This document shows positions 31,582-59,543 of a stretch of 59,543 bases of DNA, piece by piece. The position numbers and the translations under genes are program-made. The DNA is taken from NCBI GenBank assembly GCA_963805825.1, contig CAWDVO010000027.1:1-59543 (forward strand), in the 5' to 3' direction. Position 1 is the stretch's first letter, and the number at the start of each line of letters is the position of its first letter. The notes under the pieces are model-generated. The model saw nothing but the letters and a program-made list of their open reading frames with translations. It was not told the DNA's origin and did no database searches. This DNA comes from Candidatus Brocadiaceae bacterium. GTDB taxonomy: Bacteria; Planctomycetota; Brocadiia; SM23-32.

Positions 31582-31588
31582 TACGACG

Positions 31589-32325: not shown

Positions 32326-32342
32326 GGCACGGGGCGAACGAC

Positions 32343-32696: not shown

Positions 32697-32702
32697 CCGA
32701 CC

Positions 32703-33282: not shown

Positions 33283-33336
33283 CCGTTACAGAACGGCCAG
33301 TAAGAGCGACTGAACAGAAGGAAGATACGGGTCGAT

Positions 33337-33522: not shown

Positions 33523-33590
33523 AGCGACGGCGACGAAACTTCGGCCGATAGAGCATCCGCCCCGAGCGGACCATAGGAGAGGCGAAAAAG

Positions 33591-33986: not shown

Positions 33987-34009
33987 CATCGCGGGGAAGG
34001 TATAGAGCC

Positions 34010-34586: not shown

Positions 34587-34633
34587 TAAGCGCGCACTGC
34601 ACGGTGCGACACTGATCTGAGACCGAGACAGCA

Positions 34634-35017
34634 ATGGACATAAACAAGCGAAAAGTAGTGCAGCGCCACAGGCGCCACCGCAGCGTGCGCGCCCGCATCG
34701 AGGGCACGTCCGAGCGGCCCCGCCTGTGCGTCTACCGCAGCAACAAGCAGATATACGCCCAGGTCATCGACGACTGGAGCCGGCAGACCCTTGCCAGCGC
34801 ATCCTCCATGAGCCCCGAGCTGAAGGGCGGGCCGGCGGACGGCGCCAACCTGCAGGGCGCGGCGAAGGTGGGGGAGCTGATCGGCAAGAAATGCCTGGAG
34901 AAGGGCATCACCACGGTGGTCTTCGACCGGGGCGGCTACCGCTACCAGGGGCGCATCAAGGCCCTGGCGGACGCGGCGCGCAAACAATTCCAGGACGCCG
35001 GCGCGGCGGGCTTCTGA
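34634..35017 (+). CDS. rplR: 50S ribosomal protein L18
   Basis: [20 protein letters not shown]...[23 protein letters not shown]18 consensus. Confidence 0.95.
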
Positions 35018-35064
35018 AGACCCGCACGCGCCCCGCACACTAAAGGGACACGGCCGGAGGCTAC

Positions 35065-35754
35065 ATGGCACGAAGAGAACAGGAAAGCGGGGTCCTCGAG
35101 GAGGTCATCGCCATCCGCTTTCACACCAAGGTCACCAAGGGCGGCCGCAAGCTGAGCGTTGCGGCCCTGGTGGCCGTGGGCGACGGCAACGGGAAGGTCG
35201 GTCTGGGCTACGGCAAGGCCAGCGGCGTTCCCCAGGCCATCGAGAAGGCTAACAAGGAAGCCCGCGCCAGCATGATCAAGGTCCACCTCGTCGGCGACAC
35301 CATCGCCCAGGAGGTGCTGGGTCGCCACGGCGCGGCGCGCGTGCTGCTCATCCCGGCCAGCCCCGGAACGGGCGTCAAGGCCGGCGGCACCGTGCGGGCC
35401 ATCCTGCAGGTGCTCGGCGTCCACAACGTGCTGAGCAAGGTCTTCGGCAACACCAATCCGGTCAACGTCGCCAAGGCCACCATGACGGCCCTGGCGGAGA
35501 TGCAGTCGGTGGCCCAGGTGGAGCGGCTGCGCGGCGTCAAGCTGCACATGTTCCACCCGCAGTTCGGCAAGCCGGAGGAGGCGAAGGCCGCTCCGGTAGC
35601 CGCAGCGGCGACGGCCGTAGCTGAGGCCGAGGAGGCCCCCCAGGCTGTCGAGACGCCCGAGGTTGTCGAGGCGGCCGAAGCGCCGACAGCCGAGGCGCCG
35701 GCGGCGGAAGAGGCACCCCAGACGGACGCAGAAGCCGCTGATTCCGAGCAATAG
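35065..35754 (+). CDS. rpsE: 30S ribosomal protein S5 with ~60-aa Ala/Glu-rich C-terminal extension
   Basis: VTKGGRKLSVAALVAVGDGNGKVGLGYGKA... S5 core, then a PEEAKAAPVAAAATAVAEAEEAP... tail. Confidence 0.9.
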   Translation: MARREQESGVLEEVIAIRFHTKVTKGGRKLSVAALVAVGDGNGKVGLGYGKASGVPQAIEKANKEARASMIKVHLVGDTIAQEVLGRHGAARVLLIPASPGTGVKAGGTVRAILQVLGVHNVLSKVFGNTNPVNVAKATMTALAEMQSVAQVERLRGVKLHMFHPQFGKPEEAKAAPVAAAATAVAEAEEAPQAVETPEVVEAAEAPTAEAPAAEEAPQTDAEAADSEQ

Positions 35755-35780
35755 GCAAACACCCGAAGGACGTCGATACA

Positions 35781-36287
35781 ATGGATATTGGAAGAGCTAA
35801 GAAGCTGACCCGGCCGCGCGCGACCAAGAAGCGCGTCGGCCGCGGCACCGGCAGCCGACGGGGCAAGCTGAGCGGCCGCGGCCGCGACGGCGCCGCCTCC
35901 CGCGCCGGCTGGTCGGAGCGCGGCATCAGCGGCAACATGCCCCTGTGGCGCCGGCTGCCCAAGGTGGGCTTCAGCAACGAGCCGTTCAAGACGGAATACC
36001 TGGCCGTGAACGTGAGCCGGCTGAACGCCTTCCCGGACGGCGCGGTCGTCACCCCCGAGGAGCTGCGCAAGGCCGGCATGGCCAAGCAGGCCCCGGACGG
36101 CGGCGTGAAGATACTGGGCCAGGGCGAGCTGAGCAAGGCCCTGACCGTGAAGGCGAACGCCTTCAGCGCCAGCGCCGTCAGCAAGATCGAGGCGGCCGGC
36201 GGCAAGGCCGAGGTGCTGCCGGGGCCCAAGCCGCCCGTGCGGCGGAAGATGGGCAGCGCTGACGCACAGCGCAAGCAGTCCAGGTAA
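35781..36287 (+). CDS. rplO: 50S ribosomal protein L15
   Basis: KRVGRGTGSRRGKLSGRGRDG...KILGQGEL L15 consensus. No rpmD (L30) lies between rpsE and rplO. Confidence 0.9.
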   Translation: MDIGRAKKLTRPRATKKRVGRGTGSRRGKLSGRGRDGAASRAGWSERGISGNMPLWRRLPKVGFSNEPFKTEYLAVNVSRLNAFPDGAVVTPEELRKAGMAKQAPDGGVKILGQGELSKALTVKANAFSASAVSKIEAAGGKAEVLPGPKPPVRRKMGSADAQRKQSR

Positions 36288-36317
36288 AGGGACCCCGAGC
36301 GAGCGGAAGAGGGCTGC

Positions 36318-37722
36318 ATGAGCCTGTTCGAGCAACTGGGGAACGTCTGGCGCATACGCGACCTGCGTCGCAAGATTCTGATCACGCTGGGCCTGCTGGC
36401 GCTCTGTCGCGTCGGCGTCTACATCCCCGTGCCCGGCGTGAACACGAAGGCGCTGGCGGACCTGCTGAAGTCGATGAGCAGCACGGCCGGTGGCCAGCTT
36501 CTGGGCATCGTCAACCTGTTCAGCGGCGGTGCCTTCACGCGCGGGGCCATCTTCGGCCTCGGCGTCATGCCCTACATCAGCGCGTCCATCATCTTCACCC
36601 TCCTGGCCAACGTCATTCCCAGCCTGGAGGCCCTGAAGAAGGAGGGCGCCGCCGGGCAGAAGAAGCTCAACCAGTACACCCGCATCGCCACCGTCTTCAT
36701 CTGCTTCTTCCAGGGCGCCATCGTCGTGCGCGGCCTGTTCTTCAGCTTCCCCGGCGTCATCCCGGACTACGTAGCGCAGAGCTTCATCCTGCGCACCGTG
36801 TTCATGCTCAGCAGCGGCTTCCTCATGATGGTGGGCACGCTCTTCCTGATGTGGATGGGCGAGCAGATCGACGAGCACGGCATCGGCAACGGCATCTCGA
36901 TGATCATCATGATCGGCATCGTCGCCCGTCTGCCGCAGGCCTACCTTGACCTGGCCACCCGCATATCCGGCGCCGAAAGCCAGCAGAACGCCATCCTCAA
37001 GATCGTCCTGCTGCTCGTCCTCTTCCTGGCCATCATTGTGGGCATCGTCTACATCACCCGCGGCGAACGCCGCATCCCGGTGCAGCAGCAGAAGCACGTT
37101 CGCGGGCCGAAGATATACGGCGGCCAAAAGCACTACCTGCCGCTGCGTGTCAACCAGGCCGGCGTCATGCCCATCATCTTCGCCCAGGCGCTGCTGTCCT
37201 TCCCGGCCATCATCGCCGTCTCGCTGGCCAAGGCCTTAGAGCCGTCGCACGGCTTCTGGTACGGCTTCTTCAACGCCATCGGCGACGCCATCAGCCGGCA
37301 GAGCGACCTGACGTTCACCTACGTCATCCTCTACGGGCTGCTGCTGTTCTTCTTCACGTACCTTCTGGACGGCCGTGATGTTCAACCCCAAGGAGATGAG
37401 CGAGAACCTGCAGAACTACGGCAGCTTCATCCCCGGCATCCGGCCCGGCAAGCGCACCGCCGACTACCTGGAAGGCATAATGAACCGCGTCACGCTGGCG
37501 GGCAGCGCCTTCCTGCTGGGCATCGCCCTCATGCCGCTGTTCGTCATGGACCGTTTCGGCGTCGGCTGGGGCGTGGCAGGCTTCTATGGCGGCACCAGCA
37601 TCCTGATCGTCGTCGGTGTCTCTCTGGACCTGGTCAGGCGCATCAACGACCACCTGGAGATGCGGCGTTACAGCGGCTTCACCGCCGGCGCAGGCGGACG
37701 CCGCAGAAGCCGGCGCCGCTGA
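36318..37722 (+). CDS. secY: preprotein translocase SecY with apparent 1-nt frameshift near 37368
   Basis: Ten-TM SecY pattern (GVMPYISASIIF, FQGAIV...). After ...LLFFFTY the frame shifts; the C-terminal 115 aa continue in the +1 frame (FWTAVMFNPKEMSENLQNYGSFIPGIRPGKRTADYLE...). Confidence 0.85.
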
Positions 37723-37768
37723 GGCGGCCGGCAGCACGGCATTCTGTGGACATTGAAGAGGTGAAACG

Positions 37769-38419
37769 GTGAGACTCGTCTTCCTCGGACCTCCCGGCGC
37801 GGGCAAGGGCACGCAGGCGGACCGCATAGCGGGCCGCTACGAGCTGGCCCATGCCAGCACGGGCGACATCTTCCGCAAGGCCATCGCGGAGGGCGCCGAG
37901 CTGGGCCGCACCGTGAAGGACTACCTGGACGGCGGCAAGCTGGTGCCGGACGAGCTGACCTCGCGCGTCGTCGAGGAGATGGTCATCGACAAGGAGCAGA
38001 GCTACCTGCTGGACGGCTATCCGCGCACGCTCGGGCAGGCCAGGGACCTGGCCGCCATGCTGCAGAAGCGCGGGCAGGTGCTCGACTGCGTCGTCTACTT
38101 CGGCCTGGACGACGAGGCGGCCGTCAAGCGCCTGACCGGCCGGATGGTCTGCAGCCAGTGCGGCGCCAACTACCATCGCGACTTCATGCCGCCGAAGGTT
38201 GAGGGCAAGTGCGACCAGTGCGGCGGCGCCCTGAAGGTGCGCAGCGACAGCGCCGAGGACGTCGTGCGCCGGCGCCTGGCCGAGTACCATGAGAAGACCC
38301 AGCCGCTCGTCAAGTTCTACGAGGAACTGGGGCTGCTGAAGCGCGTGGACGCCTCGGCGGCTCCCGACGAGGTGACGCGCGCCACGGAGGCCGTTCTGGA
38401 CCAGTGCGCCGCCGGCTGA
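37769..38419 (+). CDS. adk: adenylate kinase (zinc-lid type)
   Basis: MRLVFLGPPGAGKGTQA P-loop. CSQCGANYH...CDQCGG lid. Confidence 0.95.
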   Translation: MRLVFLGPPGAGKGTQADRIAGRYELAHASTGDIFRKAIAEGAELGRTVKDYLDGGKLVPDELTSRVVEEMVIDKEQSYLLDGYPRTLGQARDLAAMLQKRGQVLDCVVYFGLDDEAAVKRLTGRMVCSQCGANYHRDFMPPKVEGKCDQCGGALKVRSDSAEDVVRRRLAEYHEKTQPLVKFYEELGLLKRVDASAAPDEVTRATEAVLDQCAAG

Positions 38420-38449
38420 CACCCCGCACACAGGCCGCAAGGAGCAGGC

Positions 38450-39211
38450 ATGGGCGGGATCGAGCGCAAGACGCCGGTGGAGCTGGCCAGGATGCGGCAG
38501 GCAGGCCGGCTGGTGGCGGGGGCGCTGAAGTTGCTCAGTGACATTGCGGAGCCGGGCCTGACGACGGAGCAGCTCGACCGCGCGGCCGGCGATTACATAC
38601 TTAAGCGCGACGGGATACCCGCCTTCAAGGGCTACAGGGGCTTCCCGTGCAACATATGCGCCAGCGTCAATGAAGAGATAGTTCACGGCATTCCCGGCCC
38701 GCGCAAGCTGCGGGAAGGGGACCTGCTGAAGATCGACATCGGCGCCATCTGGGAGGGCTACTACGGCGACGCCGCCGTGACGGTGCCCATCGGAGAGGTG
38801 TCCGACGAGGCGCGGGAGCTGATGCAGCTCACGCGCGAGTCGCTGAACGTGGGCATTGCGGCCATCCGGGCCGGCGCCCGCATAAGCGACGTGGCCCGAC
38901 CCATCCAGCAGATGGTGGAGAAGAAGGGCTACAGCGTCGTGCGCGACTACTCGGGGCACGGCATAGGCCGGGCGCTGCACGAGGACCCGCGCGTGCCCAA
39001 CTACGTGGAGCGCCGCGTGCTGGGCCGCGACCCGGTGCTGCCGGAAGGGGCCGTGATCGCCCTGGAGCCGATGGTCAACGCCGGACGGCCGCAGACGGAG
39101 CTTTTGGACAACGGCTGGACGGTGGTGACGCGTGATCGCAAGCTCTCGGCGCACTTCGAGCACACGGTGGCGGTGGGCGCCGACGGGCCGGTGATACTGA
39201 CGTTGCCGTAA
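38450..39211 (+). CDS. map: type I methionine aminopeptidase
   Basis: 253 aa. Pita-bread fold motifs ([47 protein letters not shown]). Confidence 0.95.
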
Positions 39212-39266
39212 GGTGTTTGCAGACCAGCCTATGGGCTGCTATAATTGGAGTGTTTGGGCTTACGAA

Positions 39267-39482
39267 ATGGCAAAAGAAGAACCGATCCGCATACAGGGCA
39301 GGGTGACCGAGGCGTTGCCGAACGCCATGTTCCGCGTGGAACTGGAGGACGGCCACGAGATCCTGGCCCACGTCTCCGGCAAGATGCGCATGAGATTCAT
39401 CCGCATCCTGCCCGGGGACACGGTGACTTTGGAGTTGTCCCCCTACGACTTGACGAAGGGCCGCATCGTCTGGCGCGACTGA
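39267..39482 (+). CDS. infA: translation initiation factor IF-1
   Basis: [51 protein letters not shown] (S1-like OB fold). The upstream 18 codons of the listed ORF are probably not translated. Confidence 0.9.
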
Positions 39483-39517
39483 AGGGAGCGCCGGGGGATG
39501 GCGGTAGAGGTAGAGCG

Positions 39518-39631
39518 ATGAAAGTGCGAGCCGCCGTGAAGAGGATGTGCGAGGACTGCAAAATCGTGCGCCGCAAGGGCGTGCTGAGGGTTGTCTGTCG
39601 CAACCCCAAGCACAAGCAGCGCCAGGGCTGA
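39518..39631 (+). CDS. rpmJ: 50S ribosomal protein L36
   Basis: [37 protein letters not shown] (37 aa, Zn ribbon). GAGG RBS. Confidence 0.95.
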
Positions 39632-39664
39632 TGCCATATAGAGCAGCGAGGAGGACGCCATAAC

Positions 39665-40051
39665 ATGCCGCGCGTTGTCGGTGTCGACATACCGAACGAG
39701 AAGCGAACGGTCATCGCGTTGACCTACATCCACGGGATCGGCCGGACCTCCGCCGAGGGCATCTGCGAGATCCTGGCCATCGACCCGGAGAAGCGGGCCC
39801 ACGAGCTGACCGAGGACGAGCTGAGCCGCATCGCCAGCTATATCGACAAGAACTTCCTCATCGAGGGCGAGCTGAAGCGGCTGGAGGCGGCCAACATCAC
39901 CCGCCTGCGCCAGATCAACTGCTACCGCGGCGTGCGCCACCGCCGCGGGCTGCCCGTGCGCGGACAGCGCACGCGCACCAACGCCCGCACCCGCAAGGGT
40001 AAGAAGCGGACCGTTGCCGGCAAGAAGGGCGTCAAGGAACTCGGCCACTAA
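39665..40051 (+). CDS. rpsM: 30S ribosomal protein S13
   Basis: [32 protein letters not shown]13 consensus. Confidence 0.95.
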
Positions 40052-40073
40052 GCCGTAGCCGCCCCGAACGGAA

Positions 40074-40898
40074 TTGACGAACGAAGACGGACTGCTCAGC
40101 TTTCTGGAGAGCAAGCCCGACCTGCTCAAGGCGATCGAGCTGCTCGGCCCTCGTGGCCAGAGCGACACGCGCCGGTCCAAGAAGCTGCAGGAGGTGGCGG
40201 GCTTCGGCGAGGTGATCCGCCGCTACGTGCGCCAGGTGCTGGCGAAGAAGGACGCGATCCGGCTGGCCGACTTCTCATGCGGCAAGAGTTACCTGGGCAT
40301 CGCCATGGCGCTGGCGCTGCCGGCCCTGGAAGGCAAGCGGGTGGCGCTGGTGGGCGTGGACGTGAACGCGGGCCTGATCGAGAAGTGCCGCCGCGTGGCG
40401 CAGGAGGCCGGTTTGGCGGACGCGCGCTTCGAGGCCGGGCGCACGATGGCGTTCGAGAGCGACGAGCACTTTGACGTGGTCGTCGCCCTGCACGCGTGCG
40501 ACACGGCCACGGACGAGGCGATCGCGAAGGGCATCCAGTTGGGCGCGGAGCTGATCCTGGCCGTCCCGTGCTGCCAGAACCAGATACGCGGCCAGATAAC
40601 GGACGGCCACGGGCTGACGGCCATGACGGAGTTCGGGCCGATCCGCTACCGGCTGGCCAACATGCTGACCGACGCGCTGCGGGCGCAGTTTCTGCGCAGC
40701 GCGGGCTATTTCGTCGAGCTGACGGAGATCGGCTCGCCGCGCCTGACGCCGAAGAACCTGTGCATCTGCGCGCGCAAGGTGAAGCGCAGCAGCGCACGGC
40801 GGCGCGACGAGGGCTACCGGGCGTTGAAGAGGTTTTTTGACGTCAAGCCCAAGGTGGAGCAGTTCTGCCCGGGCATAATCGAAGACGAGAGCGACTGA
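40074..40898 (+). CDS. class I SAM-dependent methyltransferase (unknown specificity) inserted between rpsM and rpsK; start codon uncertain (TTG at 40074)
   Basis: Rossmann-type motifs: [11 protein letters not shown] (motif I-like), VGVDVN, and [13 protein letters not shown]. 274 aa. Confidence 0.55.
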
Positions 40899-40945
40899 GG
40901 CGCGGCGCCAGGCCGAGCCGAGTGGATTTAGGAGAGAGCGACAGG

Positions 40946-41323
40946 ATGGCGAAGAAGAAGGTTACGACACGGCGGGTGGGCTCCCGGGCGATCGCCCACA
41001 TACAGGCGACCTTCAACAACACCCGCATCAGCATTACGGACCTGAAGGGGGACGTGCTCTGCTTCGACACGGCGGGCTCCTGCGGGTTCAAGAACACCCG
41101 TAAGAGCACGCCGTTCGCCGCGCAGCGCACGGCGGAGCGGATTGCCGACAAGGCCAAGCGCATGGGCATCACGGAGCTGGAGGTGAAGGTCAAGGGCCCC
41201 GGCTCCGGCCGTGAGGCGGCCGTCACCGCCCTTGAGGCCGCCGGCCTGAACATACAGTCCATCGAGGACGTCACGCCCCTGCCGCACAACGGCTGCCGTC
41301 CGCCCAAGCGGCGGCGCGTCTAA
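40946..41323 (+). CDS. rpsK: 30S ribosomal protein S11
   Basis: [33 protein letters not shown]11 consensus. AGGAGAG RBS. Confidence 0.95.
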
Positions 41324-41375
41324 GGGCCACCCGAGAAGAGCCACACGAGAACACCACCAGGAAGCTGAAGAGAAT

Positions 41376-41999
41376 ATGGCCAGGTATCACGGACCAAAAT
41401 GCAGGCTCTGCCGGCGCGAAGGGCTGAAGCTCTTCCTGAAGGGCATCAAGTGCAACACCGCCAAGTGCCCCATTGAGAAGCGCAGCAAGCCGCCGGGAAT
41501 GCACGGCTGGCACCGCGGGCGCCCCAGTGACTACGGCATCCGCCTGCGCGAGAAGCAGAAGTTGAAGAGGTATTACGGCGTGCTGGAGCAGCAGTTCCGC
41601 CGCTACTTCGAGAAGGCCCGCAAGCGCGTCGGCAACACCGGCGAGAGCCTGCTGGTCATGCTGGAGCGGCGGCTGGACAACGCGCTGACGGTCAGCGGGT
41701 TCTGCGTCTCCCGCGCCCAGGCGCGCCAGCTCGTTGCGCACGGCCACATCCAGGTGAACGGCCGCAAGGTCGACGTGCCCAACTACCAGGTGAGGGAAGG
41801 CGACGTGATCCGGCCCGAGCCGGTCGACAGCATCCTGGAGGAGGTGCGCCTGCACCGCGAGGAGACCGCCCACCCCCAGCCGTCCTGGCTGGAGGTCAAC
41901 GAGGCGGACCTGACGGCCCGCGTCATCCGCATGCCCGTTCGGGAAGACATCTCGGTCGAGGTCGAAGAGGGCCTGGTCGTCGAACTCTGCTCCCGGTAA
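41376..41999 (+). CDS. rpsD: 30S ribosomal protein S4 (zinc-finger type)
   Basis: MARYHGPKCRLCRREGLKLFLKGIKCNTAKC... S4 consensus. Confidence 0.95.
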   Translation: MARYHGPKCRLCRREGLKLFLKGIKCNTAKCPIEKRSKPPGMHGWHRGRPSDYGIRLREKQKLKRYYGVLEQQFRRYFEKARKRVGNTGESLLVMLERRLDNALTVSGFCVSRAQARQLVAHGHIQVNGRKVDVPNYQVREGDVIRPEPVDSILEEVRLHREETAHPQPSWLEVNEADLTARVIRMPVREDISVEVEEGLVVELCSR

Positions 42000-42045
42000 G
42001 GGAGTGCCCTTGCCCTATCTTCTGAGAACCACTGGAGATACATAG

Positions 42046-43053
42046 ATGGCTATGCGAGTGAGATGGCGGGGGCTGGAACTGCCCGTCCAGGTGCGGGTCA
42101 ACCGGGACACGCTGACGGACACCTATGGCGAGTTCATCGCCGAGCCCTTCGAGCGCGGCTTCGGCCACAGCATCGGCAACAGCCTGCGCCGCGTGCTGCT
42201 GTCCTCCATCGAGGGCTCCGCCGTCGTGGCCGTGAAGATCCAGGGCGTCCAGCAGGAACTCAGCGCCGTCGACGGCGTGCTGGAGGACGTGCCCGAGATC
42301 GTGCTGAACATCAAGGAACTCGTCCTGCGCCTGCACCCCGACGAGGAGAAGCACCTGCGTATCGAGGCCAGTGAGCCCGGCCCGGTCACGGCCGCCAATA
42401 TCGTGCCCGACCCGGACGTGGATGTCGTGCGCCCGGAGCAGGTCATCTGCACCCTCACGGACAAGACCGATTTCGTCTGCGACCTGGTCGTCCGCAAGGG
42501 CAGGGGCTACGTGCCCAGCGAGGAGCTGGAGGGCCTGCCGACCGAGATCGGCACCATCCCCGTGGACGCCCTCTTCTCGCCCGTGCAGCGCGTCAGCTAC
42601 CGCGTGGAGGACACGCGCGTCGGCCGCAAGACGAACTACGACCGGCTGATCATGCAGGTCTACACCAACGGCGTGGTCGGGCCGGAGATGGCGCTGGTCG
42701 AGGCGTCCAAGATCATGCGCAAGCACCTGAACCCGTTCGTCGAGTACTTCGAGCTGGGTCGCCAGCTCCCGCAGGAGGAGCCGGAGCCCCTGGCCGAGAT
42801 GAAGCACCTGGGCGGGGCGGAGATACCGGAGTCGAAGCTTTCGATGCCGCTCTCGGCCCTCGGGCTGAGCACCCGCGCGGCCCACTGCCTGGAGTCCGAA
42901 GGCATCCACACCGTCAAGGAGCTGCTCCAGAAGAGCGAGAGGGAGCTGCTTAGCATGCGCAACTTCGGCCAGGTCTCGCTGGACGAGGTGGCCGAGGAGC
43001 TGAAGAAGCACGGTTTGGAGGTCGGGCTGCTGGCCCCCGCAGAGGAGGCCTGA
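42046..43053 (+). CDS. rpoA: DNA-directed RNA polymerase alpha subunit
   Basis: 335 aa. N-terminal domain FIAEPFERGFGHSIGNSLRRVLLSSIEGSAV and a C-terminal HhH domain. Confidence 0.95.
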   Translation: MAMRVRWRGLELPVQVRVNRDTLTDTYGEFIAEPFERGFGHSIGNSLRRVLLSSIEGSAVVAVKIQGVQQELSAVDGVLEDVPEIVLNIKELVLRLHPDEEKHLRIEASEPGPVTAANIVPDPDVDVVRPEQVICTLTDKTDFVCDLVVRKGRGYVPSEELEGLPTEIGTIPVDALFSPVQRVSYRVEDTRVGRKTNYDRLIMQVYTNGVVGPEMALVEASKIMRKHLNPFVEYFELGRQLPQEEPEPLAEMKHLGGAEIPESKLSMPLSALGLSTRAAHCLESEGIHTVKELLQKSERELLSMRNFGQVSLDEVAEELKKHGLEVGLLAPAEEA

Positions 43054-43107
43054 GGCGGCGCGCCGCGCTCAAGCAAGAACCCCATTTTGCCAACGAAGTG
43101 AGCTATC

Positions 43108-43713
43108 ATGAGGCACAGGAAGAAAGGTCGTAAGCTCAGCAGGGGCGCCACCCACCGCCAGGCGATGAGCCGCAACCTGGCCTGCGCGCTGCTGATGCGC
43201 GAGCGCGTCGTGACCACCCCGGCCAAGGCCAAGCAGGTCCGCCCCTTCGTCGAGCGGCTCATCACGCTGGCCCGCCGCGCCCTGCCGTTCAAGGACGGCG
43301 ACAAGGCCGCTCGCGCCCGCTACGTGCACTACTACCGCCTGGCCCTCCAGCGCCTTCAGGACAAGGAAGCCGTCCAGAAGCTGTTCGGAGAGGGCGATTG
43401 GCGCGAGGGGGAGTCCCTGGCCCAGCGTTACGCGGACCGCGACGGCGGCTACACCCGCATCATACGCCTAAGCGGCAGCCGGCTCGGCGTGCCGATCGGC
43501 GACGCCGTCAGCGCCGTGCCCGTCCTGGACTACCAGATGGCCGGCGTCGAGCGTACGCTGCGCCTGACCGGCAACCGCCTGGGCGACAACGCCCCGCAGG
43601 TCATCTTCGAGCTGGTCGAGAAGGCCGGTGCCGTCGAGGAAGGGGAGGAGGTCGCCCCGACCGTCTCCGTCTCCGAGCCGGCCGCCAAGGCCGAGCAGGA
43701 GGCCGACGAGTAA
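43108..43713 (+). CDS. rplQ: 50S ribosomal protein L17 (with C-terminal extension)
   Basis: MRHRKKGRKLSRGATHRQAMSRNLACALLMRERVVTTPAKAK L17 consensus. Confidence 0.95.
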   Translation: MRHRKKGRKLSRGATHRQAMSRNLACALLMRERVVTTPAKAKQVRPFVERLITLARRALPFKDGDKAARARYVHYYRLALQRLQDKEAVQKLFGEGDWREGESLAQRYADRDGGYTRIIRLSGSRLGVPIGDAVSAVPVLDYQMAGVERTLRLTGNRLGDNAPQVIFELVEKAGAVEEGEEVAPTVSVSEPAAKAEQEADE

Positions 43714-43768: not shown

Positions 43769-43789
43769 CGTACGTCCTGTGCGCCGTGC

Positions 43790-44125
43790 CTACGCGGCGG
43801 CAACCTGGTCGATGGCCTTCTGGTACTGGCCCTTCGGCTGCACGCCGATCATCCGCAGGTCCTGGACCTCCTTGCCGCCCTTGAAGAACAGGACGCTCGG
43901 GATGGCCGTGATGCCGTACTTGCTGGCGGTCTGCGGGTTGTCGTCCACGTTGAGCTTGTAGACCTTGATGGCGCCGGCGTTGCCGGAGGCCAGCTCCTCG
44001 ATGACGGGGCCCACCATGCGGCAGGGGCCGCACCAGGGCGCCCACATGTCCACCATGACGGGCACGTCCGCCTTCAGCACCTGTTCCTCGAACTCCTGAT
44101 CCGACACATCGGGTACGTTCGACAT
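43790..44125 (-). CDS. trxA: thioredoxin
   Basis: 111 aa. WAPWCGPCR active site. The listed 232-aa ORF over-extends 5' into another gene's frame. Confidence 0.95.
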   Translation of the reverse strand: MSNVPDVSDQEFEEQVLKADVPVMVDMWAPWCGPCRMVGPVIEELASGNAGAIKVYKLNVDDNPQTASKYGITAIPSVLFFKGGKEVQDLRMIGVQPKGQYQKAIDQVAAA

Positions 44126-44160
44126 GGGGCCGTCCTTTCGGGATTGCTCGCAAGGGCCGT

Positions 44161-44708
44161 CTATGAGGCCGGCAGGTTGTCCCTGAGGTACGTCGTCTTC
44201 GCGATCAAGTTCTCCATCAGGCTCTTCGCGCCGCGCTCGTCGCCCTTGGGCTTGATCCAGGGGTGCTCCTGGCTGTAGACGTCGGTCACCTGGGTGGCGT
44301 CGTAGGGCGTGATCGTGATGCTGTTGTTGGCGGTCTGAAGCTCCGTCAGCAGGGACTCTGCGGCCGCGCGGGCCTGGGCAGTACTGGCCGGCGTCGGCCA
44401 TCTGGCGCACGTGAGCGAACTTCTCCAGCAGGGGCTGGAACATGTCGGGCTTCTCAGCCAGCACCTTCTCCATGCGGTGCTGGTACATCGTAGCCCGCGA
44501 AGATGCACAGGCCTACGGCCAGCATGATGCCGATGTAGAGGCCGCCGGTGTAGATCTCCTTGTGCTTGGCCTTGCCCCTGGCGCGCTTCACCTGCGCCTC
44601 GAAGCTCTCGCCGCTCTTCAGGTTCACGCCGCAGTGGGGGCACTTGATCTCCCCGACCGTGACCATTCCGTGACAGCTCGGACACTCCAGTGTCTGCTCT
44701 TTGCCCAT
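44161..44708 (-). CDS. hypothetical membrane-anchored zinc-ribbon protein with two apparent frameshifts (~44490, ~44395)
   Basis: Three in-frame segments: MGKEQTLECPSCHGMVTVGEIKCPHCGVNLKSGE...TM helix GLYIGIMLAVGLCIFAGY; MYQHRMEKVLAEKPDMFQPLLEKFAHVRQMADAGQY; TAQARAAAESLLTELQTANNSITITPYDATQVTDVYSQEHPWIKPKGDERGAKSLMENLIAKTTYLRDNLPAS. Confidence 0.5.
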
Positions 44709-44879
44709 GGCTTCGCCTCGCATGTCCAGAGTCCCAGGACCCTGCGTCTACCATCTATATTCTATCCAAGGGGGTGGCAGTGTCAAACGCACGGTGCCTC
44801 GGTCCGAGCCGTTGCGGCCGGCCGGCCGGTTCTGGTATCGTGGCCGCGATGGACCGAGATGCAGCCTGACCGTGCAGCC

Positions 44880-46054
44880 TCCCTCCGCCGCGACCTGGCC
44901 GCCCTGTGCCGGCGTGACGGCCGGACGCGGTGCGCATCGTCCGCAGCCCCTACAGGGTCTGCCCGCTCGGAGCGCACGTGGACCACCAGGAGCGGCTGCG
45001 TCACCGGCATGGCGCTGGACCGGGCACTGCTGCTGGCGTTCGCGCCGCGCTCGGACGGCGTGGTGGCGCTCCACAGCCGGCAGTTCCCGGGCAAGGTCGA
45101 GTTCCGCCTGGACGGTGTGCCCCCGACGCCGGCCGGCGACTGGGCGGATTACGCCCGCGGGGCGGCTGTCGCGCTGCGGCGCCGCGGGGGCCTGGAGCGC
45201 GGCATGACGGCCCTCGTGGACGGCTACGACAACGTCGGCGGCCTCAGCTCGTCGGCCGCCGTCGGCGTGGCCTACCTGCTCGCCCTGGAGGCCGTCAACG
45301 GCCTGCGGGCCGGTCCGGAGGAGAACATCGAACTCGACCGCCACATCGAGAACGACTACATCGGCCTGCGCAACGGCATCCTCGACCAGTCGACCATCCT
45401 GCTCAGCCGACGCCGGCAACTCATGCACCTGGACTGCCGGGACGGCTCCTGGAGCCTGGTGCCGTTCGGCGGCGGGGACTTCGTCGTAGCCGTGCTCTTC
45501 AGCGGGCTGCGCACGCCGCTCGCACAGACGGACTACAACCGCCGCGTCGGCGAGTGCCGGCGCGGCGACGGAGCTGCTCCTGCAGGCGGCGGGCCTGCCC
45601 GTTCCGGACCCGCCCGTGCTGCGCGGCGTGCCGGAGGACGTCTTCGAGCGCTACGGCGCCTCCCTGCCTGCCCGAGCTGCGCCGGCGGGCGGCCCACTTC
45701 TTCGGCGAGCAGGAGCGCGTGCGGCGCGGTCTGGAACTGTGGCGGGCGGGGGACATGGCCGGCTTCGGCCGCCTGGTCACCGAGTCCGGCCGCAGCTCGG
45801 TCGAGAACTACGAGTGCGGGAACCCCTACCTGCGCAGCGCCTTCGACGCGCTGCGCGACTGCCCGGGCGTCTACGGCGCACGGTTCAGCGGCGCCGGGTT
45901 CCGGGGCTGCTGCATCGGCCTGGCCGAGCCCGGGCGCTGAGCGGAGATAGCGGAGAGGGCGCTGCGGGCCTACCTGCGCGCCCACCCGGACATGGAAGGG
46001 CGGGCGGAGGTCTACTTCTGCAGGTCGGCGGACGGCGCCGGCCTCGTCGAGTGA
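44880..46054 (+). pseudogene. galactokinase-like GHMP kinase, disrupted by >=4 frameshifts and one in-frame TGA (45938-45940)
   Basis: GHMP motifs are spread over three frames: RSPYRVCPLGAHVDHQ (PGRVNLIGEHTDY-like), GLSSSAAVGVAYLLAL, and the C-terminal GARFSGAGFRGCCIGLAEPGR*AEIAERALRAYL...YFCRSADGAGLVE. Confidence 0.6.
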
Positions 46055-47298: not shown

Positions 47299-48635
47299 AT
47301 GCTGCAGCGCATTATCCTGCCCCAGCTCGGCCAGACGATGGAAGAAGGCACCATCGAGAAATGGCACAAGAAGGAGGGCGATCCCGTCAAGAAGGGCGAG
47401 ATACTCTACGACCTCGGCACCGACAAGGCCACGCTCGAGGTGGAGTCTTTCGCCGAGGGAACGCTCCGCAAGGTGCTGGCGGCCGATGGGGATACAGTGC
47501 CCGTCAACACGTTGATCGCCATCATCGGCGCGCCGGGCGAGGAGATCCCGGAGTCCATGCTGCAGGAAGGCGCCGCGCCCGCCCCGAAGGCCGCGGCGGC
47601 CGAGGAGCAGGCGCCGGAGGCTGCGGTCGCTGCGCCGGAGCCGGAGGTCGCGGCCGCACCGGGCGCACCGGCGGGACGGACGTTCGCCTCCCCGCGCGCG
47701 CGCAAGGTGGCCGATGAGCGCAAGGTGCCGGTCCGGGCGCTGCGCGGCAGCGGCCCGGGCGGCCGCATCGTCGAGCGCGACGTGGAGGCCTACCTGGAGA
47801 AGCTGTCGGCAGTGCCGCACACGCCTACGGCACGCGAGGTCGCCTTCGAGAAGGGTGTCAGCCTGCTGGACGTCGCCCGACGGGTGGGGGGGCGGCGGAT
47901 CGAGAAGGCGGACGTCGAGGCTGCGGCCGAGGCCGGTGTCGGGCAGGTGGCGGCGGCCGGTGAGCGCCTGGCGCTGTCGCACATGCGGCGCACCATCGCC
48001 GCGCGCATGACGCAGTCCAAGCAGACCGTCCCGCACTTCTACCTGGTGGGGGACGTGCTGATGGGGGCCGCCATGGCCTACGTGAAGGAGTTGAGCGCCG
48101 CGAGCGGCACCAAGGTCACGCTGACGCCGCTGCTGGTGAAGGCCGTCGGCGTGGCGCTGCGGCAGAACCCGCGCATGAACGCCCGCTTCGCCGGGGACGC
48201 CATCGTGCTGAACGCCGACTGCAACGTGGGCGTCGCCGTGGCGGTGGACGACGGCCTGTTCGTGCCGGTCGTCCGCCAGGCGGACGCCAAGGGGCTGACC
48301 GAGATCTCGTCCGAGCTGCGCTCGCTGGCGGAGGCGGCCCGCGAGGGCAGGCTGATCCCCGAGCAGGTACCGAGGGCGGCTCGATCACCATCAGCAACCT
48401 GGGCATGTTCGGCGTGCAGGCGTTCCTGCCCATCATCAACCCGCCGGAGAGCTGCATCATCGGCGTGGGGTCGGTGACCGAGCAGGCCATCGTGATGCAC
48501 GGCGGCATCCGCATCGAGCCGGTGATGACGGTCTCCGTGAGCGCCGACCACCGCGTGGCCGACGGCGTGGTGGCCGCGCAGTTCTTCAGCACGCTCAAGT
48601 CCGTGCTGGAGAAGCCGGAGGACCTGGGCGGCTGA
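47299..48635 (+). CDS. dihydrolipoamide acyltransferase E2 component (lipoyl domain + E3-binding + catalytic domain) with apparent frameshift near 48372
   Basis: Lipoyl motif EILYDLGTDKATLEVES. PSBD region ASPRARKVADERKV. Catalytic region SHMRRTIAARMTQSK...VPHFY...; the C-terminus TISNLGMFGVQAFLPIINPPESCIIGVGS...DHRVADG is in a shifted frame. Confidence 0.85.
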
Positions 48636-55028: not shown

Positions 55029-55580
55029 TCACGCAGCATTCGGCGCACGCCGGTGCAGGAAGCCGACTAGGAAGGACCAGGAGAGAGCCGTCATGGCGAG
55101 CGTGGTCCAGAACAGGGCTGCCGGTCCCCACGGCGCGGCCTGCCCGAACGCGCGCAGCACGAGGACGACGTAGCCCAACTCGATGACGCCGACCTGCAGG
55201 GCGAACTTGGCCTTGCCCATCCAGTTGGCGCCCTCGACGTGGGTGGGGGTGGTGCGCGCGTGGCGGGCGGCCGTGACCAGGAACTCCCGCGCCACGTTCA
55301 GCAGCACCAGCCAAAGCGGCAGCAGGCGGAGGTCAACCAGGACGAGCAGGGCGCACAGGACGACGATCTTATCCACGACGGGGTCCAGCAGCGTGCCCAG
55401 GCGGCTGACGGCGCCGCTGCGCCGGGCCAGGTAGCCGTCGAGCCAGTCGCTGGCGGCGGCGAGATTGAAGAGGACACCGGCCGCGACGAGGCCGGCTGGG
55501 GCCGAGGAGTAGGTCAGGTACAGGAAGACCGGAAGCAGGGCGAGCCGAAGGAGCGTGATGAGGTTGGGCAAGGTGACCAA
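55029..55580 (-). CDS. pgsA: CDP-diacylglycerol--glycerol-3-phosphate 3-phosphatidyltransferase (CDP-alcohol phosphatidyltransferase family)
   Basis: 183 aa. ASDWLDGYLARRSGAVSRLGTLLDPVVDKI matches D-G-x2-AR-x8-G-x3-D-x3-D. Confidence 0.85.
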   Translation of the reverse strand: MVTLPNLITLLRLALLPVFLYLTYSSAPAGLVAAGVLFNLAAASDWLDGYLARRSGAVSRLGTLLDPVVDKIVVLCALLVLVDLRLLPLWLVLLNVAREFLVTAARHARTTPTHVEGANWMGKAKFALQVGVIELGYVVLVLRAFGQAAPWGPAALFWTTLAMTALSWSFLVGFLHRRAPNAA

Positions 55581-55611
55581 GCCTGCCTCCCGGCCGCTGC
55601 CTCGCCCGGCG

Positions 55612-56301
55612 CTATGAGCCGCCGCCCGGTCCCGACGTGACCGCCGGCAGGTCGCTGGGGTCGAGGTCCGAATAGTGCTCGTAGCTCCAGAGCCAGCCGT
55701 GGTCCCACCGTCCGTTGCGGTTCACGTCGGTGAAGGCCGTCATCTTGCCGCTGGCGTCCACCTCGCACGGCTCGTTGTTCAGCAGAAAGTCCGTGTTGCC
55801 CGGCATGCGGCCGCAAGCGAAGCCGTAGAACTTGAGCATGGCGGCGCCGGTGTCCAGCGTGCCCAGCTTGGCGTTGATGCGGCCCTGGTCCCCGGGGATG
55901 AACTTGGGGAAGGGCAGCAGGGACCAGAAGACCAGCAGTGAGCCGGTGAAGATGACGGCGGTCAGCAGGCCCACGAGCGGGCCGGCCGTGCGGTCCACGA
56001 TGATGGGGCAGCCGGCGCCGGGGTCGGTGTACTGGACCTTCAGCAGCCGGCCCACGATCAGGACGAGGCCGAATATGAGGAGGAAGGCGATCGCCCGCAG
56101 GTATTGGGGCGCCGGCGGTGTCGTGCTGATGATGCTGGAGAGAATCTCGCCGACGGGGCCGCAGAACGTCATGGCCAAGAAGAAGCCGATCAGGTTGCGG
56201 GCCATGGTGTAGGTGGCCGTGTAGAGGCCGTCCCGGTAGCCCGCGAAGGCCATCGCGATCAAGAGCGCCACCACTGCCAGCAGAACGAGTACGGGTATCA
56301 T
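55612..56301 (-). CDS. CvpA-family membrane protein with ~90-aa soluble C-terminal extension
   Basis: N-terminus MIPVLVLLAVVALLIAMAFAGYRDGLY (CvpA-like) and three further TM segments. Its start overlaps the stop of the upstream gene (ATGA). Confidence 0.5.
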   Translation of the reverse strand: MIPVLVLLAVVALLIAMAFAGYRDGLYTATYTMARNLIGFFLAMTFCGPVGEILSSIISTTPPAPQYLRAIAFLLIFGLVLIVGRLLKVQYTDPGAGCPIIVDRTAGPLVGLLTAVIFTGSLLVFWSLLPFPKFIPGDQGRINAKLGTLDTGAAMLKFYGFACGRMPGNTDFLLNNEPCEVDASGKMTAFTDVNRNGRWDHGWLWSYEHYSDLDPSDLPAVTSGPGGGS

Positions 56302-58145
56302 TGGCCCTCTCCTGTCTTCTTGGCGGCCTTGCCGACCGGTTGCGTCAAGACGCGGCGGATTTCCTCGAGCGTGGTGATGCCGGCCGTCACCTTGGTCAGG
56401 CCGTCCTGATACATGCTGCGCAGCGCGCCCTCACCGGCCGCCTTACGGATGTCGGTGGGGGAGGCGCTGCCGGTCGCCAGCGCCCTGGCCACCGGCTCGG
56501 TGATGATGAGCATCTCGTAGATGCCTATCTGGCCGCGGAAGCCCGAGTTCAGGCAGGCGCCGCAGCCCACGGGGCTGTACCACTGCCCCGGAGCGGCCGG
56601 GTCCAGCTTCAGCTTGGCGATCAGCGTCGGGTTCGGCTCCACCATCTCCCGGCAGTTCGTGCAGAGCCTGCGCGCCAGCCGCTGGGAGATGACGCAACTG
56701 ACCGCGCGGCTGACCAGCTTCGGGTCGCTCGTCATCTTGGCCAGGCCGATCAGGGAGCCGGCGGCGTCCGCCGCCCGCATCGTGGTCAGCACCAGGCCCT
56801 CGTCGCTGGCGAAGTGCAGCAGGTGGGACGCCTGATCGGGCTCGGTGATCTCCCCCCACATCAGGACGTTGGGCCCTTCGCGCAACAGCTCGGCGAAGAC
56901 CTGAGCGGTCGGCTTCTGCTCATCGATGGGCCAGTGCCGGATGCTTACCAACTCCACCTCCGGGTTCTTCTCCACGGCTATCACGTCCGTGGTGAAGATG
57001 TCGATGAGGCTGGAGATGCCGTAGAGGGTGGTCGTCTTGCCGGAGCCCGGCGGGCCGCAGACGATGACGGCGCCCTTGGACTGCGTGGCGGCTGTCTGGA
57101 GGCGCTTCAACACGGCGCCGTGGACGCCGAGGGACTCGAGACCCTTCTTGTAGAGTTCGGCATTCCAGTTCGGGAAGTCGAGCACGAGCGCGGGCTTGCC
57201 GTCAATGGCCGCTATCTCGGCGGCGATCTCGGTGATCTGTCCGCCCGCCATCTCGGCCTTGATCTTGCCTTTGCCCTGCCGCACGCGGCCCTCGGCCGCC
57301 AGACCCAGGAAGACCGAGGCGCAGGCCAGCACCTGCTGGCCCACCTCCGGCTCGAAGGTCTCCACGTTGTGAACCACGCCGTCCATCAGGAACTGGGCCA
57401 CGTAGCGGTCGCCGGCGTAGACCATGCGCACCTTGCGCGTCTGGGTGGTGCCGGCGCGGACGACGAAGTCGCCCAGTATGGCGCCGGCCTGGGCGAAGGT
57501 CTCCTGCTGCGTCATCAGCGCGCTCAGGCTCTCCCCCTTGGCGTTGGTCAGAGGCACGGCCAGCCGCTCCACCTCGCCCTTGTCGCCCATCATGACCAGC
57601 TTGTTGAGCACGGGCACGTTGCCGAACATCTGCTGCATCCGGTATGAGCCGAAGATCCTGTGCTGCGTCGGCACGACGGCGTCGCGTTTGGTGATGTAGA
57701 CGATGATGGCTACGAGCATCATCAGGAGCAGCACGAAGCCCAGGGCGGCGTGGATGAGCACCATGAGCAGGAAGCCCAGCCAGCCGACGCCGAGGATGAT
57801 GGCCGTCACCACGGGGTAGTCCATGCCGACGCCGCGAGAGTCGAGGCTGGCCCACGAGGAGGCGTAGAGCCAGGCGCTGGTGCTGACGATGAAGAGAAGC
57901 AGCCAGAGCGGGTTCATGTAGAATTGGGTGAGCGGGTCGCGCTCCTTCTGCCTGGCGGCGGGCTGCTCGGCGGCCGGCGCTCCGTCGGCCGGGGCTGCGG
58001 CGGCCTGCCCTCCGGCGGCGGGGGCTGCGGCGTCCGTCTGGGCGGCCGTCAGGCCGGCACCCAGCCAGCAGAGGAAGAGGGCGGCCAGGAGCGCCGTCAC
58101 GACCGGCCTTCGCGTGCAACCGGCAACAGCCTCTGTGCGGATCAT
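56298..58145 (-). CDS. GspE/PilB-family secretion ATPase with unusual N-terminal signal/transmembrane domain
   Basis: Walker A VIVCGPPGSGKTTTLYG. GspE core (WGEITEPDQA, TTMRAADAAGSLIGL) and C-terminal CTNC...CGAC tetracysteine. The N-terminal ~170 aa contain a signal-like segment plus 2-3 predicted TM helices instead of a GspE N1 domain. Confidence 0.75.
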   Translation of the reverse strand: MIRTEAVAGCTRRPVVTALLAALFLCWLGAGLTAAQTDAAAPAAGGQAAAAPADGAPAAEQPAARQKERDPLTQFYMNPLWLLLFIVSTSAWLYASSWASLDSRGVGMDYPVVTAIILGVGWLGFLLMVLIHAALGFVLLLMMLVAIIVYITKRDAVVPTQHRIFGSYRMQQMFGNVPVLNKLVMMGDKGEVERLAVPLTNAKGESLSALMTQQETFAQAGAILGDFVVRAGTTQTRKVRMVYAGDRYVAQFLMDGVVHNVETFEPEVGQQVLACASVFLGLAAEGRVRQGKGKIKAEMAGGQITEIAAEIAAIDGKPALVLDFPNWNAELYKKGLESLGVHGAVLKRLQTAATQSKGAVIVCGPPGSGKTTTLYGISSLIDIFTTDVIAVEKNPEVELVSIRHWPIDEQKPTAQVFAELLREGPNVLMWGEITEPDQASHLLHFASDEGLVLTTMRAADAAGSLIGLAKMTSDPKLVSRAVSCVISQRLARRLCTNCREMVEPNPTLIAKLKLDPAAPGQWYSPVGCGACLNSGFRGQIGIYEMLIITEPVARALATGSASPTDIRKAAGEGALRSMYQDGLTKVTAGITTLEEIRRVLTQPVGKAAKKTGEGQ

Positions 58146-58164
58146 GCTGGGGGTCCGTTCCGTT

Positions 58165-59265
58165 TTAGCCGATGGTGGGTTGAGCGATGTCTATGCCCTT
58201 CAGCGCCATCTCCAGGGCGTCCCGGTTGGGCGCGAACTCACGGGCCACCTTCTTCTCGATGTAGCCGTCGCGGATCATCTGGACGAACGACTGCGTCCAG
58301 CTCATCATGCCCTCCTCGCGGCCCACGCCGATCAGGTCCGCGATGCGTCCGTCCTGGCCCTCCTCGATGGCCTTGCGGATGGAGGGGTTGACGAACATCA
58401 GCTCCACCACGGGCACCACGCTGAAGCCCTTCGACGAAGGAGGGGATGAGCTTCTGGCAGAGGACGACTTTGAGGTTGAAGCCGAGGCTCTCGCGGATCA
58501 GCTTGTGCTTGTCCGGCGGGAACAGGTCGAGGATGCGGGAGATGGTGCCGGCGGCGCTGGAGGTGTGCAGCGTGCCGAAGACGAGGTGGCCCGTCTCGGC
58601 GGCGATCAGGCCGGCCTGGAAGGTCTCCTCGTCACGCATCTCGCCCACCAGGATGACGTCCGGGTCCTCGCGCACCGCCGCGCGCAACGCATCGGCCCAG
58701 TCGCGGGCGTCCAGGCCGATCTCGCGCTGGTTCACGATGCTCTTGGCGTCGTGGTGGAGGTATTCGATCGGGTCCTCGATCGTCAGGATGTGGGCACGGC
58801 GGCGGCGGTTGACCATGTGCAGCAGGCTGGCCAGCGTGGTGGACTTGCCGGAGCCGGTGATCCCGCAGACCAGCATCAGGCCCTGCTGAAGGTCGCAGCA
58901 GCGCTCCAGAACGTGCGGCAGGTGCAGGTCCTCCAGGGACGGGATGTTCTCCACGATCAGACGGGCGGCCATGCTGATGTAGCCCTTCTGCATGAAGACA
59001 TTGATCCTGACGCGCCCCTTCTCGAAGTCGTGCCCAGGTCCACGCTGCCCCTGTCGTGCAGCTCGGTCATCCTCTCGCGCCCCAGAAGCTCTTCCACCAG
59101 GGCCACCATCTGCCGCTCGGTGAGCGGCTCGTTCTTGGTGCGGCGGGTCACCGTCGATGCGGAACATCGGGACTCGTCGACCTTCAGGTGCAGGTCGGTC
59201 GCGTGCAGGTCCGGCATCTGGTTGAACAGCACGTCCATCCGGATCGACTTCGCTTGCTCGCTCAT
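58165..59265 (-). CDS. pilT: twitching-motility ATPase PilT with two apparent frameshifts (~59040, ~58420)
   Basis: N-terminus MSEQAKSIRMDVLFNQMPDLHATDLHL with an AAAGGGGAA RBS. Core RVRINVFMQKGY...LVCGITGSGKSTTLASL...DPIEYLH...VGEMRD...TLHTSSAAGTISR. The C-terminus VVELMFVNPSIRKAIEEGQDGRIADLI is in a third frame. Confidence 0.85.
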
Positions 59266-59543
59266 CAGCGTTCCCCTTTACGCACGGGTCGAGCCGGATC
59301 GCCGAGCGGGCCGGCGGTGCAGCGGTGAGGCGTCTCAGTTTGTACGCCAGTCCGGCGGGTGACCGGGGGTCCGAGAGCCGCCTCTCCACGCTCACCCGAA
59401 GAACTCGCCACAGGCCGGAGCACTCGGGCGTCTCGTCCAGACCTTGGTGGCCGCGTTGACGACGACCTGTAGCCCGGCCGCGCCATCCTGTCCAGCGGAC
59501 GGCGGGCGGGGCCGGACGGCATGCCCAAGTAGCTGCATCAGGG

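Follow-up and report, generated by a model that had tools for sequence, protein, structure and literature searches.

We analyzed a 59,543-bp stretch of DNA, the whole of contig CAWDVO010000027.1 from a Candidatus Brocadiaceae bacterium (hereafter referred to as the window; GC content of about 67%), and describe a three-gene unit in which a membrane-anchored relative of the type IV pilus ATPase PilB and the type II secretion ATPase GspE is encoded between a PilT-family ATPase and a CvpA-like membrane protein. The central protein, 615 amino acids in length, combines a signal peptide-like segment and three transmembrane (TM) helices with an ATPase core that has lost several catalytic motifs, and, judged from its sequence, it is probably a pseudo-ATPase and not a working enzyme. 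Across lineages, the conserved unit is PilT, followed by the membrane-anchored PilB-like protein, followed by the CvpA-like protein, as seen from gene order. Our preferred reading, which we hold tentatively and with a little less than even confidence, is that the PilB-like and CvpA-like proteins form a platform that is driven by PilT and serves an envelope or membrane function in these Planctomycetota, with no classical pilus or type II secretion system (T2SS) involved.

Degenerate ATPase core and membrane module of the PilB-like protein

The gene for the 615-amino-acid protein spans positions 56298 to 58145 on the minus strand, as do all of its parts given below, and the product matches the T2SSE family over residues 238 to 598 (PF00437, 152.9 bits against 24.9). 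This T2SSE core, which is encoded at positions 56352 to 57434, comprises the N2 domain and the C-terminal ATPase domain and shares this fold with the soluble proteins PilB, PilF, and GspE. The model predicted with AlphaFold2 (AF2) is closest to these three proteins (Foldseek probability of 1.0 to PilF, PilB, and EpsE), structure 4pht is among the Foldseek matches, and the best sequence match is PilB from Geobacter (134 bits). The GspE and PilB models are each matched over their C-terminal two-thirds only, and the scores fall far below the equivalog cutoffs (183.6 bits against 630 for GspE, TIGR02533; 165.4 bits against 676 for PilB, TIGR02538). After members of its own family, the next-best database matches are proteins of about 1,000 amino acids with two complete T2SSE cores in tandem (P0025 to P0028, P0031, and P0032).

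An earlier note on this DNA, made from the letters alone, had credited the protein with a canonical GspE core. Two of the features named there hold, both of them shared with PilB and GspE: the Walker A motif GPPGSGKTT (residues 364 to 372, positions 57030 to 57056) and the tetracysteine zinc site of the form CxxC...CxxC (residues 495 to 498 and 528 to 531, positions 56652 to 56663 and 56553 to 56564), whose four cysteines, C495, C498, C528, and C531, are invariant. The glutamate after the Walker B motif is also kept (E432, in MWGE at positions 56841 to 56867). The core as a whole is not canonical, since, unlike PilB and GspE, it lacks the aspartate of the Asp box, the His box, and the arginine fingers. 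The place of the Asp box (positions 56952 to 56978) is taken by EKNPE, the region reading VEKNPEVE instead of E-D-P-x-E; an E-x-x-x-E spacing is seen here when the sequences are aligned with MAFFT, but HMMER does not reproduce it, and clade members differ at these positions. In the His box, which lies at positions 56766 to 56804 and reads EGLVLTTMRAAD, the expected T-G-H...H is replaced (DEGLVLTTMRAAD), and both histidines are missing in all 19 clade members compared. The arginine finger region reads RVRQGKGK at positions 57264 to 57287; where R-x-P-Q-D-G-R...R is expected, the protein has RVRQGKGK...EIAAE, with a lysine at the first finger and an alanine at the second, neither of which is conserved in the clade.

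In PilT-like ATPases, these catalytic residues are completely or highly conserved, and their mutation abolishes activity and function (McCallum et al., PMC5424180). It is because of these degenerate motifs that we regard the protein as an unlikely working ATPase. The loss goes further in some of its relatives: the Walker A lysine is replaced by arginine, valine, or threonine in several clade members, and the catalytic glutamate after the Walker B motif is replaced by glutamine, aspartate, serine, or asparagine or is lost. About 10 of 80 tabulated membrane-anchored sequences keep all motifs, and in a crude neighbor-joining (NJ) tree these are basal except for one nested group.

The N-terminal part of the protein is also unlike that of soluble PilB and GspE proteins, which have an N1E domain. 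No match to this domain (PF05157) was found in the 615-amino-acid protein, and the region consists instead of a signal peptide-like segment, a linker, a three-TM module, and a connector. The signal peptide-like segment (residues 1 to 35, positions 58041 to 58145) was recognized by hydropathy and as an AF2 helix at residues 12 to 35, modeled with about the same confidence as the TM helices described below; it has an n-region with two arginines, a hydrophobic core, and an AxA-Q site that is conserved in the clade, with Q36 being nearly invariant. It is followed by an Ala/Pro-rich low-complexity linker (residues 36 to 75, positions 57921 to 58040), which is variable in the clade and modeled with a predicted local distance difference test score (pLDDT) of <50. 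Where the earlier note had proposed two to three TM helices, hydropathy, the AF2 model (pLDDT of 80 to 90), and clade conservation agree on three, at residues 79 to 106, 110 to 130, and 133 to 157. Together they make up a module, also delineated by alignments, of residues 79 to 157 (positions 57675 to 57911) in which W81, W92, D102, G121, H132, Y150, and R154 are invariant. The module has no Pfam relative, and a profile search against the PDB returned chance matches only, with E values above 0.1. The connector (residues 158 to 237, positions 57435 to 57674), presumably cytoplasmic, is modeled as two short helices, a strand, and two more helices. With a signal peptide followed by three TM passes, the T2SSE core would end up on the cytoplasmic side, the N terminus outside, and the linker in the periplasm. 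The sequence KRDAVVPTQHR, which is basic and comes next to the last TM pass, fits a cytoplasmic core.

The full architecture is common to about 25 protein clusters with 44 to 80% identity. A profile of the module alone, searched against 1.84 billion representatives, matched 333 representative clusters at an E value of ≤1e-3 and 96 at ≤1e-10. A T2SSE core could be aligned in all 59 full-length module matches that were analyzed, and PF00437 was matched in 6 of 6 that were scanned. The module thus defines a large family, as yet without a name, whose members are PilB/GspE-like and membrane anchored. Among the genomes of the GTDB species set, close relatives were found in only about 12 metagenome-assembled genomes, labeled Planctomycetota, Brocadiia, or Brocadiaceae. 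A further homologue search, in which the N-terminal module was the sole query profile, gave 6 short fragments only, its sensitivity being limited by the word index. A wide full-length alignment of the family used as a query returned mainly ordinary PilB proteins and did not supply taxon names for the family at large.

A conserved triad with PilT and a CvpA-like protein

In the window, four codirectional genes lie in tight succession, as the earlier note had described, and are on the minus strand: pilT (approximately positions 58165 to 59265), the gene for the 615-amino-acid protein, a cvpA-like gene (55612 to 56301), and pgsA for CDP-diacylglycerol-glycerol-3-phosphate 3-phosphatidyltransferase (55029 to 55580; TIGR00560, 117.1 bits against a cutoff of 109.1). 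A 19-nucleotide (nt) spacer separates pilT from the T2SSE gene, and a 31-nt spacer separates the cvpA-like gene from pgsA. The stop codon of the T2SSE gene and the start codon of the cvpA-like gene overlap by 4 nt (ATGA), and the same 4-nt overlap follows from the gene coordinates in L002 and L004.

Loci of the clade to which the window belongs show the synteny dapA, pilT, membrane-anchored T2SSE gene, and cvpA-like gene. Of the 15 clade loci, 13 extend past the ATPase gene on its upstream side, and each of these has the PilT gene; the CvpA-like gene is present in 15 of 15. In the window, pgsA adjoins these genes and had been counted as an operon member. A pgsA match comes next in 9 of the 15 clade loci, some of the remaining ones ending shortly past the cvpA-like gene, and none was found at any distant locus examined. 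Its linkage was seen in the window clade only, and the conserved unit is the triad. The triad recurs in four distant lineages with degenerate motifs (L085, L087, L091, and L092), in which the flanking genes differ (ruvAB, hisF, and others). At these loci, a T2SSE gene of 381 to 397 amino acids lies directly upstream and a CvpA-like gene lies directly downstream; the upstream gene product in the two lineages tested belongs to the PilT family (384 to 394 bits against 319). Overall, PilT is encoded directly upstream in 5 of 5 degenerate lineages examined, with gaps of 0 to 85 nt. Among four members with canonical motifs, a CvpA-like gene follows in three (L090, L093, and L094): L090 and L093 have it without PilT, L089 has neither partner, and L094 has the full triad. 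A rule that canonical motifs go with the absence of a PilT neighbor was considered and dropped; three of the four canonical members fit it, and L094 breaks it, leaving a tendency only.

The link to CvpA is specific to the membrane-anchored family. As controls, 79 ordinary soluble PilB loci were obtained from a metagenome locus scan with an alignment of canonical members, a scan that also gave one family member. A CvpA-like open reading frame (ORF) within 4 kb was found at none of the 79 control loci, and a PilT-like gene was found near 15 of them. No gene for PilC/GspF, a pilin, a prepilin peptidase, PilMNOPQ, or a secretin was found near the triad in about nine lineages, with 4 to 10 kb inspected on each side.

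These data bear on the possibility that the 615-amino-acid protein is a working, membrane-tethered assembly ATPase of the PilB type, with PilT acting in retraction, a pilus or T2SS-like filament being encoded elsewhere, and the TM module standing in for the N1 domain as well as for a GspL/PilM tether. Such a role would be in keeping with the PilB/GspE fold and its zinc-binding tetracysteine site, with the Walker A motif and post-Walker B glutamate of the window protein, and with the existence of canonical members, one of which (L094) is accompanied by PilT and a CvpA-like gene; a PilB gene beside pilT is, moreover, common in type IV pilus loci, as the 15 control loci illustrate. Against this stand the missing His box and arginine fingers, which are otherwise conserved family-wide (PMC5424180), the variation of the Walker A lysine and the catalytic glutamate within the clade, the lack of an adjoining PilC/GspF, pilin, PilMNOPQ, or secretin gene in the lineages inspected, and a constant partner that none of the 79 ordinary PilB loci has. 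We therefore consider a working PilB-type ATPase to be unlikely, although well short of negligible.

The CvpA-like protein of the window carries a Colicin_V domain (residues 8 to 134, positions 55900 to 56280; PF02674, 52.4 bits against 29.3) with four hydrophobic segments and a C-terminal extension of 95 amino acids (positions 55615 to 55899) that is conserved in the clade and contains DxNxNG-type repeats. The extension had been noted before as unusual; it is present, but a variable periplasmic C terminus is normal for CvpA proteins (bioRxiv 10.1101/2020.09.25.314492). The positive-inside rule and the same published work on CvpA suggest that the C terminus is periplasmic here as well. The CvpA-like partners usually have 210 to 242 amino acids, and in two lineages they reach about 400 (L085, positions 9675 to 10898; L094, positions 6395 to 7693), with long Lys-rich or beta-rich extensions.

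One protein joins two members of the triad in a single chain. P0199, a 757-amino-acid protein from a 3.2-kb JGI contig, consists of a CvpA domain (residues 7 to 133), the membrane module (218 to 339), and a degenerate T2SSE core (372 to 753). Since CvpA forms its N terminus, an arrangement that differs from the gene order, the protein is no read-through artifact. No further CvpA fusion was found among the 11 candidates scanned in which the module lies far from the N terminus. In P0199, the periplasmic C terminus predicted for CvpA would lead directly into a module that starts on the outside, in agreement with the topology proposed above, and a module with an outside start would require a signal peptide in the unfused 615-amino-acid protein.

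CvpA is conserved across bacterial phyla, its role is still obscure, its gene has a genetic link to the σE envelope stress response in E. coli, and HHpred and Phyre2 indicate that its structure resembles those of MscS and MscL, two mechanosensitive channels (bioRxiv 10.1101/2020.09.25.314492). These properties would suit a different arrangement, in which the 615-amino-acid protein binds nucleotides and senses the state of, or regulates, its CvpA-like partner, as in gating or envelope stress signaling, and PilT is only loosely associated. A Walker A motif that is kept while residues for hydrolysis are lost fits a binding switch, and three canonical-motif members have no adjacent PilT gene, two of them keeping the CvpA-like gene. 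The arrangement is at odds with the position of PilT, which immediately precedes the ATPase gene in each of the degenerate lineages examined, and with the loss of the Walker A lysine in several members, as a result of which nucleotide binding would not be universally kept, and we judge it rather improbable.

The pilT reading frame, assembly quality, and flanking genes

The earlier note had missed that, in the window assembly, pilT is split by four indels. Placed by DNA alignment to the 95%-identical L001 (ERZ25039500 contig_21826) and to the intact orthologue in L002, these are a loss of one nucleotide at 59174/59173 in a poly(C) tract, of two at 59146/59145, and of one at 59033/59032 and an extra C (+1) at 58420. 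The three resulting ORF pieces cover positions 3 to 72, 76 to 270, and 277 to 341 of TIGR01420, with two frames alternating. Where a related locus extends far enough to include the region preceding the ATPase gene, pilT is a single-frame match, with L001 as the exception, and a gene of 367 amino acids is called in L002, L003, and L004. Intact PilT orthologues score 375 to 394 bits against the TIGR01420 cutoff of 319 (375 for the 367-amino-acid orthologues) and have a canonical Walker A motif, Asp box, Walker B motif, and His box.

We regard the frameshifts in pilT as almost certainly assembly errors and not as marks of a pseudogene, for three reasons. First, indel density climbs toward the contig end, the dapA tail having about eight indels relative to L001. 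Second, other housekeeping genes of the contig are frameshifted as well. The gene for a 2-oxoacid dehydrogenase E2 component (positions 47299 to 48632, plus strand) is split at about 48368; a GHMP kinase (approximately 44442 to 45950, plus strand) has its N and C domains in separate frames; and a sulfatase (15866 to 17386, minus strand) lacks its N-terminal third, with a phase switch in third-codon-position GC content (GC3) near position 17000. Third, 29 synonymous and 14 nonsynonymous codon differences separate the window pilT from that of L001 (10 and 1, respectively, past the extra C, which the two share), an excess that points to a conserved frame under selection. Repeated GC3 phase switches in the 2.3 kb from 43770 to 46050, which follow a ribosomal-type run, suggest that this region holds several more frameshifts. 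The contig appears to be an indel-prone assembly, probably of long-read origin.

The extra C at 58420 (CAG-C-GTG, at about codon 283 of pilT) lies outside any homopolymer and is also found in the distinct L001 sequence (at about position 9487, ca. 95% identity); it may be a systematic error common to both contigs, or it may be real. L001 has frameshifts of its own in the ATPase gene, pilT (two sites), dapA, gltX, and infB, and in its ATPase, P0002, residues 384 to 455, approximately, are out of frame.

An assembly with this many indels raises the question of whether the 615-amino-acid ORF could itself be an artifact, either a lost-stop fusion of a small membrane protein to an ordinary GspE, a check that the earlier note had proposed, or part of a decaying pseudogene region. 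The four indels in pilT, those in dapA and in the E2, GHMP kinase, and sulfatase genes, and the frameshift inside the ATPase gene of so close a relative as P0002 would speak for an artifact. A lost-stop fusion is rejected because proteins with the same full-length architecture are encoded in dozens of assemblies that are independent of one another and mostly built from short reads (from JGI, NCBI, ENA, and Logan). The ORF also has a GC3 of 0.93 throughout in a single phase, and the synonymous excess in pilT, even after the shared indel, and the intact orthologous pilT genes argue against decay. An artifact or decay is hence very improbable.

Pilus genes directly adjacent to the window can be set aside as well. 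No PilC/GspF, secretin, PilM family, or pilin motif was found among the large ORFs of the window, in agreement with the earlier note, which had added that such genes could lie just beyond its end. The last approximately 200 bp of the window code for the C terminus of DapA, however (positions 59339 to 59541, minus strand, approximately residues 281 to 349 in two frames, identified by tblastn with the L002 DapA), and in related loci that reach far enough, dapA mostly adjoins pilT on its upstream side; the pilus genes are thus not located just past the window end.

On the other side of the cluster, a strong sigma-70-like promoter (TTGACA-18-TACAAT, 11 of 12 consensus positions) is found at positions 54860 to 54831 on the minus strand, within a 380-bp spacer of lower GC content between pgsA and nusA. 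It presumably serves nusA-infB, and a separate promoter for these genes would make the four-gene cluster a unit of its own. In L001, hemE lies between pgsA and nusA, which is not the case in the window.

Elsewhere in the window, a run of small codirectional ORFs on the plus strand (positions 29900 to 43700) fits a large ribosomal protein operon; a 560-amino-acid ORF (4255 to 5937, plus strand) has a strong coding signal (GC3 of 0.93) and no Pfam match; and an ORF with an HNH_2 endonuclease domain (21769 to 23019, minus strand) adjoins trpA and trpB. No tRNA or Rfam family was found in the window, and models for antiphage defense (PADLOC) gave only P-loop-level matches with E values above 1e-4.

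A proposed PilT-driven platform and its relation to known systems

We propose that the 615-amino-acid protein would be inserted into the cytoplasmic membrane by a cleavable signal peptide and its three-helix module, with the N terminus outside and the T2SSE core inside, and that it would be without the residues on which ATP hydrolysis depends in PilT-like hexamers. It may form an inner membrane platform with the four-TM CvpA-family protein, whose gene is translationally coupled to its own and whose C terminus would be periplasmic. A soluble and catalytically intact PilT hexamer could dock onto this platform and supply ATP hydrolysis, and the membrane module might relay its movements to the periplasm. 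Such a machine would be built from type IV pilus motor parts that are encoded apart from pilin, PilC/GspF, and secretin genes. Its cellular role is most likely in the envelope or membrane, given the housekeeping neighborhoods in which the genes are found, and the link to pgsA in the window clade is a weak hint in the same direction. It is conceivable, although we think it somewhat doubtful, that this is a new class of inner membrane machine in which CvpA replaces PilC/GspF, the dead PilB paralogue is a stator or adaptor, PilT is the sole engine, and no pilin filament is moved; such a machine would also offer a first mechanistic handle on the CvpA family.

Several points weigh against the proposed platform. 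The window protein keeps the Walker A motif, the glutamate after the Walker B motif, and, in one of the two alignments, an E-x-x-x-E spacing at the Asp box position, so that nucleotide binding and even slow hydrolysis may be possible. The association of PilT with lost catalysis is not a clean correlation, as it is seen in five of five degenerate and one of four canonical lineages, and the link among the three proteins is drawn from gene order and one fusion on a short metagenomic contig. Pilus genes could be present elsewhere in these genomes, our view being that of the 4 to 10 kb on either side of the gene. The taxon names apply to the close relatives and not to the wider 333-cluster family, and the NJ tree is a crude one.

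To our knowledge, the PilB, GspE, and PilT motors characterized so far all form soluble hexamers, depend on separate partners for contact with the membrane, and act on PilC/GspF-type platforms to move pilins. The triad differs from PilB/GspE systems in having no PilC/GspF, pilin, or secretin neighbors and a CvpA-like protein as its constant neighbor. In the GspE-GspL pair, and likewise in PilB with PilM/N, a bitopic or polytopic membrane protein tethers the T2SSE hexamer to the inner membrane. The tether of the 615-amino-acid protein is, in contrast, part of the same polypeptide, and its partner is of the CvpA family and not GspL/GspM or PilM/N/O. In the archaellum, an active T2SSE ATPase, FlaI, works with a poorly hydrolyzing RecA-type nucleotide-binding protein, FlaH, at the polytopic platform FlaJ. 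FlaH is KaiC-like and soluble, whereas the protein described here is a membrane-embedded PilB/GspE paralogue, and FlaJ is PilC-like and not CvpA-like. PilT and PilU are reportedly encoded side by side as T2SSE paralogues of which one depends on the other, but PilU is soluble, active, and of the PilT clade, whereas the 615-amino-acid protein is of the PilB/GspE clade, membrane anchored, and degenerate.

The CvpA-like protein resembles CvpA in its Pfam match (PF02674), its predicted four-TM layout, and its variable periplasmic C terminus. In E. coli, cvpA is part of the purF operon, and we know of no ATPase partner of the E. coli protein. The protein described here differs from it in being coupled to a T2SSE protein, to which it is fused in one case, and in its C-terminal DxNxNG-type repeats.

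In the searchable literature, we found no description of a membrane-anchored GspE or PilB protein or of a link between PilT and CvpA; the domain family is known, whereas, as far as that literature goes, there is no precedent for its membrane module, for a loss of catalysis on this systematic scale, or for a partnership with CvpA. The family, which with its 333 representative clusters is not rare in metagenomes, is set apart by a motor-type protein that is itself in the membrane, has mostly lost catalysis, and is tied to a CvpA-family protein and not to a platform of the PilC type. Should our reading be correct, it would widen the known uses of type IV filament motor parts and provide a natural pair of active and inactive paralogues within the T2SSE ATPases. 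CvpA, in turn, would gain a concrete partner and, with it, a testable function.

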